The translations under genes were made by a program, and so were the position numbers. DNA of 32,000 nucleotides from Rubeoparvulum massiliense (GTDB taxonomy: Bacteria; Bacillota; Bacilli; Rubeoparvulales; Rubeoparvulaceae). Location of the stretch: NCBI RefSeq assembly GCF_001049895.1, contig NZ_CVPE01000006.1, forward strand, positions 176,441 to 208,440, written 5' to 3'. The notes beneath the pieces were generated by a model, which was not told where the DNA came from, searched no databases, and worked only from the letters and a program-made list of their open reading frames with translations. Shown here one piece after another: positions 7,670-25,444 of the stretch (the first letter of the stretch is position 1; the number at the start of each line of letters is the position of its first letter).

Positions 7670-8038
7670 ATGATGATGATGGTAGCAGATCGCTGTGATA
7701 TCTATCAATTTGATAAAAATAAAGTGGAGCATAGTCAAACAGCATTGGCCCAAATTCCTGCAGAGGGGATGGTGGCCATCTTTAAGGCGTTGGCCGATGC
7801 CACAAGGATGAAGGTAGCCTATGCACTCAGTATTGAAGCGGAGCTCTGCGTCTGTGATGTAGCCAATATTATCGGTGCCTCCACTGCCACGGCCTCTCAT
7901 CATCTGCGCTATCTCTTAAAGCGCCAGGTGGTAAAATTTCGTCGCGATGGGAAGATGGTCTATTACTCCTTAAAGGATGAACATGTGAAGCAGCTCTTAG
8001 AAATCGCCTACCTCCATGCAAAGGAGGAACAACGATGA
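7670..8038 (+). CDS. cadC: ArsR/SmtB-family metal-sensing repressor (CadC-like)
   Basis: 'EGMVAIFKALADATRMKVAYALSIEAELCVCDVANIIGASTATASHHLRYLLKRQVVKFRRDGKMVYYSLKDEHV' includes the ELCVCDVA metal-binding motif. Exact start uncertain (several ATG). Confidence 0.9.
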   Translation: MMMMVADRCDIYQFDKNKVEHSQTALAQIPAEGMVAIFKALADATRMKVAYALSIEAELCVCDVANIIGASTATASHHLRYLLKRQVVKFRRDGKMVYYSLKDEHVKQLLEIAYLHAKEEQR

Positions 8039-10185
8039 GCTCAGAAGCGATGAAGCAAGTTTGGCGTGTACAGGGTTACTCCTGAGCAGACTGTGCTGCT
8101 CAGTTTGAGCAGAATGTGAAGAGGATTCCAGGTGTTGTCGATGCGAAAGTGAACTTTGCTGCAGCGAAAATAACTGTCTGGGGTGAGGTTAGTCGTGAAG
8201 CAGTGGAGGAAGCTGGTGCCTTTGAAAGCTTAAAACTGATGGAGGAGCAGGCCACCTTCACTGACCAGAAGGTTCCTATTTGGAAACGTCCTACCTTCTA
8301 CCAGGTGGTGGGGAGTGGACTCTCGCTCATCCTAGGTTGGTGGACACTGCTTACTGATGTGGAGGAAATCTGGCCTACCTTCTTCTTCGTCTTTACCATT
8401 ATTTTGGGCGGATATGCGCTAATTTGGCGCGGGTTAACGAACCTGACACGCCTCCGCTTTGACATGAGTACATTGATGACGGTTGCTATTCTTGGTGCTG
8501 GTGCATTAGGAGAATGGGGAGAAGGAGCGACCCTCGTCTTTCTCTTTGCCATCAGTGAATGGCTTGAGCGTATCTCCATGGATCAGGCCCGCTCCTCGTT
8601 GCGTAATCTACTGGAGTTGGTGCCACCCGTTGCCCAAGTGATACAAGGAGATGAAGTGATTGCTACCCCTGTTGCGGAAGTGCACCCTGGCGCACGCTTA
8701 TTAGTTCGTCCAGGGGAACAGATTCCCCTAGATGGCATCGTTGTGAAAGGTCTCTCAGCGGTGAATCAAGCGGCCATTACAGGGGAAGCGGTTCCAGAGC
8801 AGAAGCAGCCTGGCGATCCAGTCTATGCTGGTACCTTGAATGGTGATGGCTTGCTCGAGGTAGAAGTGACGAAGGAAGCAGAGGAGAGCACCTTAGCCCA
8901 GGTGATTCAGCTAGTAGAAGAAGCACAGGAGAAGAAGGCACCTGCTCAACAGCTGGTAGATCGCTTTGCCCGCTATTATACCCCCTTGATTATCGCCATC
9001 GCTGGGGCGGTAGCCATTCTGCCTCCACTCTTGGTAGGTCAGGATTGGCAGGCTTGGATCTACCGTGGTCTAGCCATTCTCGTGGTAGGCTGCCCTTGCG
9101 CCTTAGTGATTTCTACACCGGTTGCCATCGTCACAGCTGTTGGCAATGCAGCACGTAATGGTGTACTCATTAAAGGCGGTGCCTATCTTGAAGAGGTGGG
9201 GCGACTCACCACCATCGCCTTCGATAAAACAGGCACCCTAACCCAAGGTAAGCCGCAGGTTACCGATGTGATTCCCCTTGCCGCAGGAGTGGGAGGATCT
9301 GATCTACTTCTCCTTGCCCATCAGCTAGAGGAAGGCTCCAATCATCCATTGGCCACAGCCATTCATCAAGCGGTGGAGGATGGCAAGCTAAAGGGATCCC
9401 CACAACGAGAGCTCATGGAATTTCGAAATCTCCCTGGGAAAGGGATTACCGCCACCATTGCAGGGAAGTCGTACCGCTTGGGACAGAGTAATTGGCTGCT
9501 TTATGAGGAGAAGGTACAATATACGCCTGTCGTGGAGGAATGGATTGAACGCCTTGAGCAGGCAGGCAAAACGGTGATGCTCTTAGCTGATGAGGGGCAG
9601 ATTCTTGGAGTCCTTGCAGCACGTGATGAGCTACGGCCAGAGATCCCCCATGTGGTTCGGACTTTGAAGGAGCTGGGCTTGAAGCATACGGTGATGCTAA
9701 CAGGGGATCATCAACAAACAGCCGTAACCTTGGGAGCTGAAGCAGGCATCGATCAGGTTCAAGCACAGCTCTTACCAGAGGAGAAGCTACGCTATATTGA
9801 GGAACTTGCTCAGCAGGAGCGCGTTGCCATGGTAGGCGATGGCATCAATGATGCGCCGGCGCTGGCTCGCGCCCATGTAGGTATCGCTATGGGTGGCATT
9901 GGTACTGCTGCTGCCATGGAATCGGCACAGATCATTTTGATGGCTGATGATTTACAAAAGCTGCCCTTTACCGTTCGCTTAAGCAGAAGAACCCTGCGGA
10001 TTATTCGCGAGAATATTACAGTGGCGTTGGGATTAAAGCTATTCGCACTCATCTTGATCATCCCAGGTTGGCTGACACTCTGGATGGCCATTTTTGCCGA
10101 TATGGGGGCTACCTTATTGGTGACATTGAATGCATTGCGTCTGCTCCGTGTGAAGAACCACGAAGTGTGCAGAACTGCTGAGTAG
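8035..10185 (+). CDS. cadA: CadA-like heavy-metal-translocating P1B-type ATPase; putative selenoprotein with in-frame UGA at 8083-8085
   Basis: ATG at 8035 overlaps the upstream stop (ATGA) with RBS AAGGAGG at 8021. Read-through gives MSSEAMKQVWRVQGYS-U-ADCAAQFEQNVKRIPGVVDAKVNFAAAKITVWGEV..., aligning UGA with the first Cys of CadA CxxC. Downstream: GCPCALVIS, DKTGTLT and GDGINDAPALARAHVGIAMG all intact. Confidence 0.75.
8083..8116 (+). promoter_or_regulatory. candidate bacterial SECIS element (UGA plus downstream hairpin)
   Basis: UGA at 8083-8085. Perfect 7-bp stem CUGCUCA (8096-8102) / UGAGCAG (8106-8112) around apical loop GUU (8103-8105), with loop G 17 nt after the UGA. The stem can extend via U94-A114, G93-U115, U92-G116 after one mismatch. 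Confidence 0.6.
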
Positions 10186-10264: not shown

Positions 10265-10344
10265 TTAGTTTATCTGATCCTACTCTTCGTTATTTTGAAC
10301 ATGGTTGTTTTGAACACGACATCAATGCTACATCATCATGTCTG

Positions 10345-18345: not shown

Positions 18346-18681
18346 TTATAAGGTAAGCACTTCGTATTGGTTGGCCAATTCAATAAAGTGTTTCATACTA
18401 GAGAGCTCACCGACGGTCATTTGATCCTGCAGTCCATAATAGTCGATACAGGTTTTGCATGCCAGAATGGAAACACCACTCTTTTCAAGCGCCTTTAACT
18501 GTAAGGAGATCACTGATTTGGCGGTGAGTGTAAAGACACCGCGATTCAAGCAGAAGATAGCCACCGGCTTCTCCTCTTCCTGTTTTAAAATAGTAAAGAA
18601 ATTCTCCAGTAAAGCTTCACCTAGCTCTTCATCGCCAGTGCCTAAGCGGTCTGATTGAAGAAGAATTACACGATTTTTCAT
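18346..18681 (-). CDS. DsrE-like domain protein resembling the C-terminal half of selenium metabolism protein YedF
   Basis: 'VILLQSDRLGTGDEELGEALLENFFTILKQEEEKPVAIFCLNRGVFTLTAKSVISLQLKALEKSGVSILACKTCIDYYGLQDQMTVGELSSM' matches the SDxxGxGDxELGxxLxxxF and ILxCxTCxDYYGL signatures of YedF. N-terminal TusA-like domain absent. Confidence 0.75.
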   Translation of the reverse strand: MKNRVILLQSDRLGTGDEELGEALLENFFTILKQEEEKPVAIFCLNRGVFTLTAKSVISLQLKALEKSGVSILACKTCIDYYGLQDQMTVGELSSMKHFIELANQYEVLTL

Positions 18682-19810: not shown

Positions 19811-20176
19811 ATGCAGTTGGAGATTGAACATCCAGAGCAGGAGAAGATGCTACGCGCTTGGCAGGAAGAGGTGGATCAATATATCTCGCAATTTAAAGAG
19901 GGGTACTTTTCTCCACTTGCCATGCTGGCCCGACTTTCAGAGGAATTAGGGGAGTTAGCCCGTGAAGTGAACCATACCTATGGTGAAAAGCCGAAGAAGC
20001 CCACTGAGCAGGCTGGCAGTATTGAAGAGGAGCTTGCTGATTTACTCTTCGTGCTCATCTGTTTTGCCAATTCACAAAATATTAGCCTTGATGCTGAATT
20101 GAACAAAGTCATGGAAAAGTTTCGGACACGCGATAAGGATCGTTGGACCAAAAAGGAGGAGTGCTCCCATGAATAA
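19811..20176 (+). CDS. ypjD: MazG-like nucleotide pyrophosphohydrolase
   Basis: 'LAMLARLSEELGELAREVNH...GSIEEELADLLFVLICFANSQNI'. First gene of the dapB-mgsA-bshB1-bshA-cca block. Confidence 0.9.
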   Translation: MQLEIEHPEQEKMLRAWQEEVDQYISQFKEGYFSPLAMLARLSEELGELAREVNHTYGEKPKKPTEQAGSIEEELADLLFVLICFANSQNISLDAELNKVMEKFRTRDKDRWTKKEECSHE

Positions 20177-20981
20177 ACCAATTCGAATCGTTGTAGCAGG
20201 TGCCAAAGGACGGATGGGACAAGAATGGATACATTATATGGAGGGAGAACCCACATTCCAGCTGGTAGCTGCGGTGGATCGTACATTAGAGGGCGTTGAT
20301 GTAGGCAATGCCTTGGGAGGCTCATCCCAAGCGCCCTTCTATACCTCCCTTGCAGAAGCTATCGAAAAGGAAAGACCCGATTGCTTAGTGGATTTCACAA
20401 CCCCAGAGGCAGGCTATCGTAATGCGCTTACGGCCATGGAGCATGGAATTCGTGCGGTCATTGGTACCACAGGCTTTAGTGAAGAGCAGCTCAAGCACTT
20501 GGAGGAGGAGCATGCCAAGCATCCTGCGGGAATGTTGATCGCTCCGAACTTTGCCATCGGTGCTGTATTGATGATGCAATTTTCAAAAATGGCTGCCCGT
20601 TTTCTACCAGATGTAGAGATAATCGAGATGCATCATAACCAAAAGCTAGATGCACCATCAGGTACAGCAAGAAAGACAGCAGCCATGATTCAAGAGGTGC
20701 GGCAGGCTCACCAGCAAGGTCATCCTAATGAATTGGAGCATATGGCCGGAGTTCGCGGTGGTGATATGGAAGGGATCCGTATCCATAGTGTCCGTCTGCC
20801 TGGTCTTGTAGCTCATCAAGAGGTAATCTTTGGCGGTGAGGGAGAGACCTTACATATTCGCCATGATTCCAATTCTCGCCGCTGCTTTATGCCAGGGGTT
20901 GCCTTGGGTATACGCTATGTAATGGAGCATCCCCAATATATCTATGGGTTGGAGCATATTCTGGGAGGGGAAATGGCATGA
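20169..20981 (+). CDS. dapB: 4-hydroxy-tetrahydrodipicolinate reductase
   Basis: '[16 protein letters not shown]', '[17 protein letters not shown]', '[30 protein letters not shown]'. Confidence 0.97.
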
Positions 20982-21403
20982 ATATCGCCTTGATTGCCCA
21001 TGACCGCAAAAAAGATGAGATGGTCAACTTTGCCATTGCCTATGAGCCTCTGCTTCAAAAACAGACGCTCTATGCTACAGGAACCACAGGACTACGGATT
21101 ATGGAGCAGACCAAGCTCAAGGTGAATCGGAAAATGTCAGGCCCATTAGGAGGCGATCAGCAGATTGGCTCTATGGTGGCTCAGAATGAGCTGGATCTGG
21201 TGATTTTTTTCCGCGATCCATTAACAGCGCAGCCCCATGAACCGGATATTCTAGCCTTACTACGGCTATGTGATGTGTATGGCATCCCCCTTGCCACCAA
21301 TGTGGCCTCTGCAGAGATTATGATCCGTGCCTTGGATCGCGGTGAGCTCAATTGGCGTGAAGTGGTTCATAAGTATCGTAATGAGATGCTTGCTAAGGAG
21401 TAA
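20978..21403 (+). CDS. mgsA: methylglyoxal synthase
   Basis: '[20 protein letters not shown]', '[11 protein letters not shown]', '[28 protein letters not shown]'. Confidence 0.97.
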
Positions 21404-21470
21404 GCCATTCGACATGGCTCTCCAGAATGGAGCAGGAAGCAGGTAGAGATGATTGGAAGATAGAAAGGAA

Positions 21471-22175
21471 ATGGCTATGGAAGCATGGGAAAGCGTTGAT
21501 ATTGTAGCATTTGGTGCCCATCCTGATGATGTGGAAATTGGTTGTGCAGGCATCTTGCATCGCCATGTGCAGATGGGGAAGCGGGTCCTCATCTGCGATC
21601 TAACCAAGGCGGAGCTCTCGTCTAATGGGAACGTGGAGCTGCGCCAACAGGAGGCAGCGCATGCCGCTGAAATCATAGGGGCGAAGCGGATCAATCTCGG
21701 GATGGCTGATCGGGGGATCGTGGAGGATACAGACTCGATCCGTAAGGTGGTTGCTGTGCTACGGCGCTATCAGCCAAAGCTAGTACTGGCACCGTATTGG
21801 GAGGATCGTCACCCTGACCATATGGCTTGCTATCATTTGGTCTACCAGGCCATCTTCTCTGCAACCATTCGTAAATTTGTAGTGGATGATCTGCCACCCC
21901 ATCGAGTTAAACAATACTTTGCTTACTTTATCAATCAGATTACGACACCAAGCTGCCTCATGGATATCTCCCAACAATGGGAGACGAAGCGGGCAGCCTT
22001 ATTAGCTTATGGCTCACAGTTCTCTGCACAGCCCGGTACGGTAAGTACGCCGTTAAATGCTGGATACCTCGCTTCCCTCGAAGGACGGGAGCGCTATTTT
22101 GGCTCACAGCTGGGCGTTCAGTATGCCGAGGGCCTCGTTAGTAAAAATCCCCTCCAGCTCACCCAGCTGGTGTAA
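21471..22175 (+). CDS. bshB1: bacillithiol biosynthesis deacetylase BshB1
   Basis: 'DIVAFGAHPDDVEIGCAGILHRH...YWEDRHPDHMACYHLV' LmbE/PIG-L family, adjacent to bshA. Confidence 0.93.
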   Translation: MAMEAWESVDIVAFGAHPDDVEIGCAGILHRHVQMGKRVLICDLTKAELSSNGNVELRQQEAAHAAEIIGAKRINLGMADRGIVEDTDSIRKVVAVLRRYQPKLVLAPYWEDRHPDHMACYHLVYQAIFSATIRKFVVDDLPPHRVKQYFAYFINQITTPSCLMDISQQWETKRAALLAYGSQFSAQPGTVSTPLNAGYLASLEGRERYFGSQLGVQYAEGLVSKNPLQLTQLV

Positions 22176-22183
22176 GGAGGCCC

Positions 22184-23326
22184 ATGATGAAGATTGGAAT
22201 CACGTGCTATCCTTCACTAGGTGGATCAGGGATTGTGGCTACGGAGTTAGGAAAATTTTTGGCGGAGCGGGGACATACGGTTCACTTCATTACATCAGGT
22301 GTACCATTTCGCCTCGGTACTTATATGCGGAATATCTATTATCATGAGGTGGAAGTGAATAGCTACTCCGTCTTTCGTTATCCTCCCTATGATCTAACGC
22401 TGGCCAGTCGGATGGCACAGGTGGCTCGTATGGCGGAGCTGGATCTTCTCCACGTTCATTATGCCGTTCCTCACGCTGTAAGTGCATATCTTGCGAAGTT
22501 GATGGTGGGAGACCACTTGAAGGTGGTTACCACCTTGCATGGGACAGATATTACTGTACTAGGGTATGACCCGACGCTTATTGATATAATCCGCTTTGGT
22601 ATTCAGCGGAGTGATTATGTGACTGCCGTCTCTGAAAGCTTGATTCAGGAGACGAAGCAATTGATCTGTCATGATCAAGAGATCGCTTGTATCTATAATT
22701 TTATCGATCCAGCGCAATATTATCGCCATGATGTAACTGCTCTTCGTCGTGAATATGTAAATTCGGAACAGAAACTGCTGGTTCACCTCTCTAATTTTCG
22801 CAAGGTGAAGCGTGCGCCTGACTGTGTTCGCATCTTGCAACAGGTTCGACAGCAGGTGGATGCGAAGCTACTCTTCATCGGAGAGGGGCCTGAATTGCCA
22901 GCGGTACAGCAATTAACCTTTGAACTGGGTCTACAGGATTATGTAATGTTTTTAGGGAAGCAGGAGGATATAACGCCCATGCTCTCTATGGCTGATCTCA
23001 TGCTGCTTCCTTCGGAGAAGGAGAGCTTCGGCCTTTCTGCCCTAGAAGCCATGGCATGTGGTGTGCCGGTTATCGCTTCCCGAGCAGGAGGTATCCCCGA
23101 GGTGGTGATCCATGGGGAAACAGGCTTCCTTGCACCCATTGGCGCTGTAGATCAGATGGCAGCTGATGCCTTGAAGCTTCTAAAGCATCCGATGCTATGG
23201 GCAGAGATGTCCCAGCATGCAGTCAATTGGGCGAAAACCCATTTTGCTGCGGAACGGATCGTAACACAATATGAGGAGATCTATCGTAAGGTCCTAGAGG
23301 GTGAAGGCCGGAGGGAAGGAGCCTAG
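22184..23326 (+). CDS. bshA: N-acetyl-alpha-D-glucosaminyl L-malate synthase BshA
   Basis: '[37 protein letters not shown]...[37 protein letters not shown]', GT4 '[24 protein letters not shown]'. Confidence 0.95.
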
Positions 23327-23332
23327 ACTAGT

Positions 23333-25444
23333 ATGAAAGATGATGAATTTTTAATAAATGGCCAGGCCTTGCCTCCACTACTTGAAGTAGGCCGAGAACT
23401 TCTTCATGTACTGAACGAAGCAGGCTATGAGGCTTATTTTGTTGGCGGTGCAGTACGAGATTATTTGCTCCATCGGCCCATTCACGATGTGGATATTACA
23501 ACCAATGCCTTGCCCGATGAGGTGGTTCAGCTCTTTCCAGCCGTAATCCCAACAGGAATGGCTCATGGTACGGTGACGGTACGCTGGAAGGGCTTCTCCT
23601 TTGAAGTCACCACCTTCCGCACCGAGGGAGAGTACCTCGATCACCGACATCCTGCAGCGGTTCAATTCGTTCATTCCCTCACGGAGGATCTAGCCCGCCG
23701 TGACTTAACCATCAATGCCATGGCCATGGATGGGGAGGGGAAGCTATACGATCCCTATGGAGGGAGGGAGGATCTTCAGAATCGGCTGTTGCGAGCGGTA
23801 GGTGATCCTCAACAACGTTTTGCTGAGGATGCCCTGCGGATGATCCGTGTTTTCCGTTTTCAGTCACAGTACCAATTTCAGATTGAAGAGACCACGTTGC
23901 AGGGCATCAAGGCGGAAAGAGGTGGTCTTCCTCTAATTGCTGCAGAGCGGATCGCCGATGAGTTTTGCAAGCTTCTTCGTGGACCAGGGTTTCTCCATGC
24001 CCTTCAACTGCTCGCGCAATTTCTTGTGCTTCAGCATCCTCGCTTACCTATACTGGAAAAACTGGTGAAGCATCCACCTGCTCTGTTCTTGCAGAGACGG
24101 ATAGATTCCCTCCACTTCCTGGCTGAAGAGCCAATGGACCCACTGATTCTCCGGCTCTTATTACTTGGGCACATGGCCACGCTCAGTGAAGCAGAGTTTA
24201 GTAAATTGGGCTATGAGCTATTTTTGCCCCGCGAGACGCGAAGGCTTCTCACAAGCTCCTATGGCTTACTCAGTGAATGGATTGAAGAGAAGTATGCAGA
24301 GAATCACTGGAAGGCAGAATGGCTGGATCTGCCACAGGAATGCATCGCCTATACGTGGGCGGCCTATTGGATCTGTGGGAAGCTCAGCAAGGGAGAGCAA
24401 GAGATAGCTGAGCTTGGGGGTGCAAATCTTCATGAGCTCTATCAATCAGAACGTAGCCAGTGGCAACGTTTCTATGAGGAACTCCCCATCCGTCACTCCC
24501 AGGAATTGCAGCTCGATGGAAACCTGCTGCTGCAGTTGATTCCTGTAGCAGCAGGACCATGGATTGCGCGACGGCTAGAGCAACTGGTCTTGGCTGTTCA
24601 TATGGGGCATCTTAAGAATGATCGTGAGGAGCTATGCCACTTTCTGCAGCAGGGCTATGCCGAAGAACTGCAAATCCGTGAGCATCTTCATACTGAATGG
24701 CTAGGTCACCAACTCTATGTCCTACCTGTAGTGGATAGCACGCAACGGGAAGCACAACGACTGTGGAAAAAGGGTGGTGCTAATGGAACGGTGGTGGTAG
24801 CACAGCATCAAACTGCTGGTCGTGGTACGAGAGGACGAATCTGGCATTCGCCTCCACAATCAGGAGCTTGGTTTAGTATGCTCTTGCAGCTCCCCATCGA
24901 TCTTAAGAGGGCACCTATCATCACCCTCCTTACAGCGGTGGCACTTTATGAAACATTGCTCAACTGGTGTCAACCAGAACAGCTTCAGATTAAATGGCCC
25001 AATGATCTCCTTCTAGCAGGGAAGAAATGTGCAGGTATCTTAACAGAGCTACATCATCATGATGAGCATGGTGCTCAATTGGTCATCGGTGTTGGGGTCA
25101 ACCTGAACCAGGAGCACAATGACTTTCCAATGGAATTACAGGAGCACGCAACCTCCTTAGCTATGGGAACTGGCGAAAAGGTCCAACCTTCATTGCTGAT
25201 TGCCTTATTCTTAGCTAAAATGGAGGAATGGCTGGCCCTATATCAACAAGAAGGAAATTCGGCTGTGCTTCATGCATGGACAAGCTATGCTGGAATGATC
25301 GGTCAACGGGTCATGACACAGCTAGAAGGCAAGGATACCAATGTGATTATCCATGGCTTGGATGAGCAGGGTAGACTCCTTCTCCTTGATAAGCAGGGTA
25401 CTATTCACACTTTAGTTTCAGGGGAGATCAGACTCAATCCTTGA
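23333..25444 (+). CDS. fused CCA tRNA nucleotidyltransferase / biotin-[acetyl-CoA-carboxylase] ligase (BirA catalytic domain)
   Basis: N-terminal 'AYFVGGAVRDYLLHRPIHDVDITTNALP...RRDLTINAMAMD' (CCA-adding) continues in frame to 'VVDSTQREAQRL...VVVAQHQTAGRGTRGRIWHSPP...IKWPNDLLLAGKKCAGILTE' (BirA). Single 703-codon ORF. Confidence 0.93.
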   Translation: MKDDEFLINGQALPPLLEVGRELLHVLNEAGYEAYFVGGAVRDYLLHRPIHDVDITTNALPDEVVQLFPAVIPTGMAHGTVTVRWKGFSFEVTTFRTEGEYLDHRHPAAVQFVHSLTEDLARRDLTINAMAMDGEGKLYDPYGGREDLQNRLLRAVGDPQQRFAEDALRMIRVFRFQSQYQFQIEETTLQGIKAERGGLPLIAAERIADEFCKLLRGPGFLHALQLLAQFLVLQHPRLPILEKLVKHPPALFLQRRIDSLHFLAEEPMDPLILRLLLLGHMATLSEAEFSKLGYELFLPRETRRLLTSSYGLLSEWIEEKYAENHWKAEWLDLPQECIAYTWAAYWICGKLSKGEQEIAELGGANLHELYQSERSQWQRFYEELPIRHSQELQLDGNLLLQLIPVAAGPWIARRLEQLVLAVHMGHLKNDREELCHFLQQGYAEELQIREHLHTEWLGHQLYVLPVVDSTQREAQRLWKKGGANGTVVVAQHQTAGRGTRGRIWHSPPQSGAWFSMLLQLPIDLKRAPIITLLTAVALYETLLNWCQPEQLQIKWPNDLLLAGKKCAGILTELHHHDEHGAQLVIGVGVNLNQEHNDFPMELQEHATSLAMGTGEKVQPSLLIALFLAKMEEWLALYQQEGNSAVLHAWTSYAGMIGQRVMTQLEGKDTNVIIHGLDEQGRLLLLDKQGTIHTLVSGEIRLNP

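Follow-up and report, generated by a model that had tools for sequence, protein, structure and literature searches.

What does an in-frame UGA do at the seventeenth codon of a gene for a heavy-metal pump? The question is raised by cadA of Rubeoparvulum massiliense, which branches deeply within the Bacilli and was isolated from human gut, within a stretch of 32,000 nucleotides of contig NZ_CVPE01000006.1 (positions 176,441 to 208,440 of the forward strand; 'the window' hereafter, position 1 being its first letter). A hairpin lies directly 3' of this UGA, at 8096-8112 of the window. From the comparisons below, we consider it likely that this hairpin is a bacterial selenocysteine insertion sequence (SECIS), which recodes the UGA at 8083-8085 as selenocysteine (Sec, U) in the HMA domain of CadA and gives U-A-D-C for C-x-x-C. 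The R. massiliense cadA is very probably an unannotated member of a known family of predicted selenoproteins, and carries a canonical bacterial SECIS.

The gene encodes a Cd/Zn-type P1B ATPase and, by translation, extends over 716 codons (8035-10185, + strand), the UGA being codon 17; the frame from ATG 8035 translates as MSSEAMKQVWRVQGYS-UGA-ADCAAQFEQNVKRIPGV... The predicted selenocysteine codon (8083-8085, +) stands where the metal motif CxxC has its first Cys; the motif here reads U-A-D-C and belongs to an HMA domain at 8035-8235 (+; Pfam PF00403, E = 3.7e-8, searched with U replaced by C in the query). Homologues such as YRVQGFTCANCA... align opposite WRVQGYS*ADCA... of R. massiliense, and the correspondence of the UGA with this Cys is seen when WRVQGYS-U-ADC is set against YRVQGFT-C-ANC of a Cys homologue. 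The same TGA was found in an independent Logan assembly (L151) that is 100% identical over 9.7 kb, and in a second strain (L001), 99.4% identical over 7.6 kb, where both hairpins described below are present as well. Being reproduced in both, the TGA is not a sequencing error. A scan of the window for open reading frames (ORFs) broken by a single TGA yielded no further selenoprotein candidates.

The published model of the bacterial SECIS (bSECIS; PMC13188914, Fig. 2A) describes an upper stem of 4 to 16 bp, an apical loop of 3 to 9 nt with a G in position 1 or 2, usually followed by G or U, a distance of 16 to 37 nt between UGA and loop, and an energy of -7.5 kcal/mol or lower. The hairpin of R. 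massiliense, defined by its fold and its conservation in homologues and called hairpin 2 below (8096-8112, +), lies inside the coding region directly 3' of the in-frame UGA. Its arm CUGCUCA (8096-8102) forms a perfect 7-bp stem with the 3' arm UGAGCAG (8106-8112), and they enclose the apical loop GUU (8103-8105). The loop of 3 nt and the stem of 7 bp are within the sizes of the model, the loop opens with G8103-U-U, 17 nt (8086-8102) separate it from the UGA, and the hairpin alone has an energy of -9.6 kcal/mol.

Could such a hairpin arise from coding sequence by chance? The local fold of 8075-8130 gave a z of only -0.97 against dinucleotide shuffles, and this test is therefore uninformative alone. 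As dinucleotide shuffling ignores coding constraint, a synonymous-codon null was used instead, in which the peptide is fixed and the codons are redrawn from the window's own usage (5000 samples). The bSECIS model is permissive, and 51% of the resamples contained some qualifying hairpin with negative energy, but a hairpin of this type at -9.6 kcal/mol or lower was found in only 0.5% (P ~0.005). The joint codon probability for hairpin 2 is 0.0065. By both measures, hairpin 2 exceeds chance expectation.

Comparison of homologues encoding the same peptide with either UGA or a Cys codon was more informative still about selection. Metagenomes were scanned with a pattern based on the peptide only, allowing TGA or TGY at the Sec/Cys codon, with no constraint on any synonymous position or on those that determine the stem; this yielded 14 genuine UGA sequences, and 6 distinct ones with a Cys codon. 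UGA-containing cadA genes with the peptide CAA[QR]FE[QR] and a GUU triloop, including that of R. massiliense, were designated 'class B', and 22 such sequences (21 plus R. massiliense; 19 distinct) were aligned (alignment A2). The class-B stem and GUU loop occur at identical nucleotides in three species of Salipaludibacillus, in Salisediminibacterium halotolerans, in an Anaerobacillus metagenome-assembled genome (MAG) and in two Bacilli MAGs. Hairpin 2 is found at the same place in all 19 distinct UGA sequences, with 98.5% of cells paired and an invariant GUU loop; none of 500 shuffles reached this level of pairing, and controls slid along the alignment were 23 to 43% paired. Compensatory changes are seen at two pairs, 24/38 (UA in 10 sequences, CG in 7, UG in 2) and 29/33 (AU in 12, GC in 7), neither of which has a single unpaired cell. 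Synonymous third positions within the stem and loop are invariant, namely GCU for Ala, NNG for Gln/Arg (which supplies the loop G) and GAG for Glu, each in 19 of 19, whereas synonymous positions outside hairpin 2 show three or four different bases.

Six Cys-codon genes encode the same peptide; there, the helix of hairpin 2 is 69% paired, and the loop G, present in 19 of 19 UGA genes, is found in one of the six. The four diagnostic synonymous sites all agree with the hairpin in 17 of the 19 UGA genes, compared to none of the 6 Cys genes (Fisher test, P = 1.6e-4). Furthermore, ordinary Cys-type CadA (118 proteins) has K and N/K/R where class B has Q/R, and for this reason the class-B peptide itself appears to be shaped by the RNA. 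Together, these contrasts indicate that hairpin 2 is held by selection specifically in UGA-containing orthologues.

A first-pass annotation of the window had proposed a SECIS-like hairpin here, with a 7-bp stem, a GUU loop and the loop G 17 nt past the UGA. Its coordinates for the UGA, the three arms and the loop were all correct on a sequence check, and its reading of the element is supported by the agreement with the bSECIS model, the position of the UGA at the first Cys of CxxC, the retention of the hairpin in 19 of 19 UGA sequences and its degradation in the six Cys genes. Compensatory change in UGA homologues, which it had named as a check, is found for the SECIS stem. It had also extended that stem below a mismatch (G8095xA8113). 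The three additional pairs (U8094-A8114, G8093-U8115 and U8092-G8116) do exist, but they are unfavourable (-8.5 versus -9.6 kcal/mol), and in the 19 distinct relatives two of them are each unpaired in 6 sequences and the third in 2. Because its energy is worse and it is often unpaired in relatives, the extension (8092-8094/8114-8116) was rejected as part of the SECIS.

The start of cadA and its surroundings bear on whether the UGA lies within a functional gene. cadA is the second gene of an operon, the first being a cadC-like ArsR/SmtB metalloregulator (7670-8038, +; Pfam HTH_5; NCBIfam NF033788, 89.8 bits for a cutoff of 55), whose stop TGA (8036-8038) overlaps the ATG of cadA (8035-8037) in the arrangement ATGA. 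On sequence inspection, a Shine-Dalgarno sequence AGGAGG (8022-8027, +) lies 7 nt 5' of this ATG; this and the overlap with cadC designate ATG 8035 as the true start. The frame is uninterrupted on either side of the UGA and retains every P-type motif. Once the UGA is read through, CadA scores well above the cutoffs of TIGR01525 (616.2 bits, cutoff 346.25) and TIGR01512 (523.5 bits, cutoff 313.5), and it also matches Pfam E1-E2_ATPase and Hydrolase. ORF callers choose instead a GTG at 8116-8118 (+), 10 codons past the UGA and inside the HMA domain, which gives a shortened product (8116-10185); sequence inspection found no Shine-Dalgarno comparable to AGGAGG before it. In a collection of 5.8 billion protein sequences, the nearest relative among the matches listed is the protein of the other strain (P0001), called from the GTG and devoid of the HMA domain, and beyond it the matches listed are at most 56% identical, all with an ordinary Cys HMA domain. 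No full-length product was found in the public protein set.

The G+C content at third codon positions (GC3) of cadA is that of the neighbouring genes, which argues for a long-resident gene; horizontal acquisition was rejected, the composition showing no anomaly. Further along the window (19811-25444), the ORF translations indicate the order dapB, mgsA, a bshB1-like gene (LmbE), a bshA-like glycosyltransferase gene and the gene of the CCA-adding enzyme. This order, typical of Bacillus, agrees with a position within the Bacilli and suits a chromosomal, non-mobile setting of cadCA. Three proteins encoded in the window are identical to RefSeq proteins of R. massiliense.

Several observations weigh against Sec insertion at this UGA, and they concern the hairpin, the host and the gene. 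No Rfam family matched anywhere in the window at gathering thresholds; with E values up to 10 allowed, the sole match in 7950-8250 was a meaningless one of 10 bits at 8006-8036, upstream of the hairpin and outside it. The two covarying pairs (A-U/G-C and U-A/C-G) also follow GC content, one of them covarying in the Cys set too, and the TGA sequences are phylogenetically non-independent. Because the covarying pairs track GC content, the invariant synonymous sites are the cleaner evidence, and these sites, with the TGA-versus-TGY contrast, carry most weight for a SECIS. For the family of ATPases with a UxxC motif, to which cadA would belong, neither experimental verification nor Sec incorporation was found for any member in the literature searched. 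As to the host, ARAGORN found no tRNA genes in the window, and tblastn with E. coli queries gave no match for SelA, SelB or SelD in the window or in all 150 fetched loci. As to the gene, the two R. massiliense strains differ in cadA by 7 nonsynonymous and 2 synonymous substitutions and by one 3-nt in-frame insertion (after 9416), compared to 3 nonsynonymous and 12 synonymous substitutions in eight neighbour genes together (Fisher test, P = 0.01); the ratio of nonsynonymous to synonymous rates (dN/dS) of cadA is ~1 when its own dS is used. Finally, TGA-cadA is found in Halalkalibacterium halodurans DSM 497, while strain C-125 of that species is listed without SelD, SelA and SelB (Peng 2016), so that the operon may conceivably be transferred into hosts unable to decode Sec. 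The other explanation would be a difference in the Sec trait between the two strains. The DSM 497 gene (L071, on an 8.7-kb contig) has the hairpins of another class, class A, described below.

Other observations on selenium in R. massiliense are few. The genome paper of the species does not mention selenium, and the species is absent from the supplements of Peng 2016 and deep-Sep. At 18346-18681 (-), the window contains an ORF of 111 amino acids that matches TIGR03527 (selenium metabolism protein YedF) with 107.7 bits, just below its cutoff (110). The match covers only the C-terminal DsrE-like half of the profile (85-187 of 194), and the ORF is preceded by a ribosome-binding site of its own. 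As it lacks an in-frame TGA, and a TusA-like domain is absent upstream, it was rejected as a second selenoprotein and is rather a stand-alone DsrE-like domain; it hints, weakly, at selenium handling by the organism. In the spacer that separates cadA from the DUF378 gene, 15 nt (TTTTGAACATGGTTG, 10293-10307) are missing in the second strain, L001.

The alternative that best accommodates these points is that the SECIS is a relic: the lineage would once have made the selenoprotein, R. massiliense would no longer decode Sec, and the UGA would terminate translation after 16 codons. cadA might then be a young pseudogene, or it might still yield a pump without HMA domain, either through translation re-initiated at GTG 8116 or through near-cognate read-through at a low level. 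The lack of tRNA and Sel matches in the window and fetched loci, and the presence of TGA-cadA in a species with a strain devoid of the Sec trait, agree with such a relic. The absence of a full-length product from the public protein set, where the sole close relative was called from the GTG, also suits it, but this GTG has no Shine-Dalgarno and stands inside the HMA fold. The excess of nonsynonymous change in cadA points the same way, but the 7 nonsynonymous changes compare with ~21 expected under neutrality. The density of substitutions is ~3-fold below the regional synonymous rate (dN/dS ~0.34 on the regional dS of 0.0128), which argues that cadA is still constrained. Moreover, the 716-codon frame with its motifs is fully intact, the only indel in cadA between the strains is in frame, neither the SECIS nor the UGA is damaged in any of the three assemblies, and the composition of the gene is adjusted to the host. 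The data point to a constraint on cadA that is weaker than that on its neighbours, yet is not free decay; the differences between strains could reflect relaxed or diversifying selection on the pump, or chance. Overall, we regard a relic as unlikely.

A second alternative stems from the other helix in which the UGA can engage. UGAGCAG (8083-8089), which starts with the UGA, is perfectly complementary over 7 bp to CUGCUCA (8096-8102), the same arm that forms the 5' side of the SECIS, and with an eighth pair, C8082-G8103, it gives hairpin 1 (8082-8103, +; CUGAGCAG/CUGCUCAG, 8 bp, 6-nt loop). Since they share this central arm, hairpins 1 and 2 exclude each other. The first-pass annotation was right about this second inverted repeat and about the exclusivity, both helices being perfect, and it had suggested that the RNA could toggle between a SECIS-competent form and one sequestering the UGA. 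Both hairpins would then be selected, as a three-arm regulatory switch that tunes Sec insertion against termination, for example by selenium supply or translation rate.

In R. massiliense itself, hairpin 1 is the more stable of the two (-13.2 versus -9.6 kcal/mol) and is the minimum-energy structure given by RNAfold for 8075-8130. Among the 19 distinct UGA sequences, it is complete (7 of 7 pairs) in 7, and in four loci (L023, L034, L133 and L144) one base changes in all three arms together, A/U/A becoming G/C/G. However, its overall pairing is 81.2%, compared to a mean of 81.1% in shuffled alignments (336 of 500 shuffles equalled or exceeded the observed value), and its covariation score is not above that of column shuffles. 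The outer two pairs are unpaired in 8 and 10 of the 19 sequences, and L011 and L134 keep only 3 of the 7 pairs while retaining a perfect or near-perfect SECIS. A switch between two selected helices would have both of them conserved or covarying among homologues; hairpin 2 is conserved and hairpin 1 stays at the level of shuffles, and the toggle is not supported as a selected feature.

The pairing of hairpin 1 has a simpler origin in the coding sequence. Sec-Ala is encoded by UGA-GCN and thereby repeats UGAGC, the five bases with which the 3' arm of the SECIS opens (U GAG C), and it therefore pairs with the central arm; 5 of the 7 pairs are automatic in this way, and Cys forms, too, keep an Ala behind the first Cys ('CANC'). 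For the two pairs left, the residue at +2 has to be Asp or Gly, and the Ala codon GCA or GCG. With the SECIS arms and the peptide U-A-D fixed, only this choice of GCA or GCG is left, with a probability of ~0.42 from the codon usage of the window, so that hairpin 1 does not exceed chance. We conclude that hairpin 1 is most likely a passive by-product of Sec-Ala coding, and that the toggle, a real property of the R. massiliense sequence, bears no sign of selection. As to mechanism, hairpin 1 has to be opened by the ribosome during translation for the UGA to reach the A site, so that no separate trigger is needed. We find such a switch improbable. A narrower version, a ribosome-driven kinetic switch that couples SelB recruitment to translation in certain lineages only (Rubeoparvulum, L023/L034 and the L125/L142 group), deserves equally little credence. 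There, hairpin 1 would hide the UGA and the 5' arm of the SECIS in untranslated mRNA, idle transcripts would thereby spare SelB, and the approaching ribosome would convert the RNA to the SECIS form just in time.

The last alternative, a TGY-to-TGA nonsense mutation that inactivated cadA next to repeats arising by coincidence from the AAQFEQ codons, could draw on the unremarkable shuffle z and on the permissive model, but it is highly implausible given the rarity of so stable a hairpin among synonymous resamples, the peptide that looks RNA-shaped and the recurrence of TGA at this position in more than 100 species, and it is effectively refuted because the hairpin is conserved throughout the UGA set and degraded in the Cys set with the same peptide.

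Sec insertion directed by hairpin 2 thus remains the preferred reading, and by analogy with E. coli and Moorella it would proceed as follows. A ribosome that brings the UGA to the A site would already have melted hairpin 1, and the central arm, once released, could fold into hairpin 2 with no other signal required. Hairpin 2, which starts 10 nt downstream of the UGA, would then stand just outside the mRNA entrance channel. SelB·GTP·Sec-tRNA(Sec) would bind the apical G-U and deliver Sec in competition with release factor 2 (RF2). In the finished protein, the Sec-Cys pair of U-A-D-C may bind ions of the Cd/Zn/Pb type in the regulatory N-terminal domain.

We then consider how widely UGA-cadA is distributed. 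Species-representative genomes were scanned with a DNA pattern set at the peptide level (G-x-[ST]-TGA-x-x-C-A-x3-E-x7-G-V). Out of at least 120 matches, at least about 105 were true HMA N-termini, encoded by cadA-like genes that carry the TGA at this codon. Those among the matches listed belong overwhelmingly to Bacillaceae (Neobacillus, Mesobacillus, Cytobacillus, Peribacillus, Niallia, Halalkalibacter, Salipaludibacillus, Anaerobacillus and others), with further ones in Clostridia of the Moorella, Desulfofundulus and Tissierella types. With tblastn, R. massiliense CadA aligns as a single segment across the TGA in more than 40 loci, at 51 to 54% identity, and CadC-like regulators are found upstream of UGA-cadA in other loci as well. 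Two of the organisms with UGA-cadA, N. bataviensis LMG 21833 (6 selenoproteins) and Robertmurraya massiliosenegalensis JC6 (5 selenoproteins), are SelD/SelA/SelB-positive Sec users (Peng 2016, supplement). One record, L056, is titled Chryseobacterium sp. ISL-80, but the N-terminus of its cadA and the flanking sequences belong to the Mesobacillus/Bacillus sp. ISL-37/ISL-45 type and its peptide is nearly that of L045 and L077; it is probably mislabelled or contaminated.

Most Bacillaceae genes (Neobacillus, Mesobacillus, Cytobacillus and others) belong to class A. They share with R. massiliense an orthologous cadC-cadA operon, the UGA at the identical codon and a first hairpin loop located over the same F-E codons, ~21 nt past the UGA. 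They differ by their RNA, GUUC-GAAAA-GAAC (up to 7 bp) followed by a second, invariant hairpin CACC-UGGAU-GGUG over H-L-D-G-V, and by their peptide, FEKNVKHLDGV instead of FEQNVKRIPGV; the class-B stem columns are paired at only 1 or 2 of 7 positions in class-A genes. An alignment of 65 loci taken from L002 to L121 (alignment A4; for example L004:4504-4575(-)) gives the proximal hairpin as (A)CGUUC-GAAAA-GAACG(U), ~21 nt after the UGA. The second hairpin starts ~40 nt after the UGA, which places its loop outside the 16 to 37 nt range of the bSECIS model, and none of its nucleotides, synonymous sites included, varies in any of the 63 distinct sequences. Compensatory pairs are seen in both hairpins in this alignment. 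Here too, the RNA seems to have imposed the peptide, KHLDGV.

These results have consequences first of all for annotation: in R. massiliense, cadA is likely called as a shortened ORF or a pseudogene, as are its orthologues in over 100 further species of Bacillota, while a full-length selenoprotein is the more likely product. If Sec is indeed inserted, a Sec-Cys pair in the metal-sensing HMA domain would alter the metal affinity and the redox behaviour of a Cd/Zn pump, and selenium supply would be linked to heavy-metal resistance in a human-gut isolate. From the point of view of method, the encoding of the same peptide with TGA or TGY constitutes a clean natural control, in which the hairpin goes with the UGA rather than with the sequence of the protein. 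As both the selenoprotein family and the SECIS model had been described previously, the value lies mainly in the correction of annotation and in this control.

The family in question is the predicted selenoprotein family 'Cation-transporting ATPase, E1-E2' (TIGR01525), with the motif UxxC (PMC13188914); it comprised 32 proteins from 25 organisms in 2016, and ABB15669.1 of Carboxydothermus is an example. R. massiliense CadA is likewise a heavy-metal P1B-type ATPase, above the TIGR01525 cutoff, with Sec predicted at the first Cys of the HMA CxxC. Compared by protein motif, the type example reads GCS-U-QSC-AAVLEERVKKLPGV and R. massiliense GYS-U-ADC-AAQFEQNVKRIPGV. The R. massiliense gene is distinguished by its CadA (Cd/Zn) subtype within a cadC-cadA operon, and its class-B SECIS with the GUU triloop differs in sequence from the hairpins of most Bacillaceae and of the Moorella-type members.

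Experimentally defined bacterial SECIS elements are those of fdhF and fdnG in E. coli. Like these, the R. massiliense element is a coding-region hairpin directly after the UGA, with a small apical loop in which G is followed by U (PMC13188914), and its upper stem-loop likewise starts some 10 to 11 nt past the UGA, at the mRNA entrance. The fdhF and fdnG elements have a GGUC tetraloop with a bulged U instead of a triloop, and no sequence similarity to the R. massiliense hairpin. In fdhF, as in R. massiliense, the UGA lies in a helix that the ribosome must open; there it belongs to the lower part of the SECIS helix itself, whereas in R. massiliense the helix containing the UGA is an alternative that competes for an arm of the SECIS, and not a coaxial lower stem.

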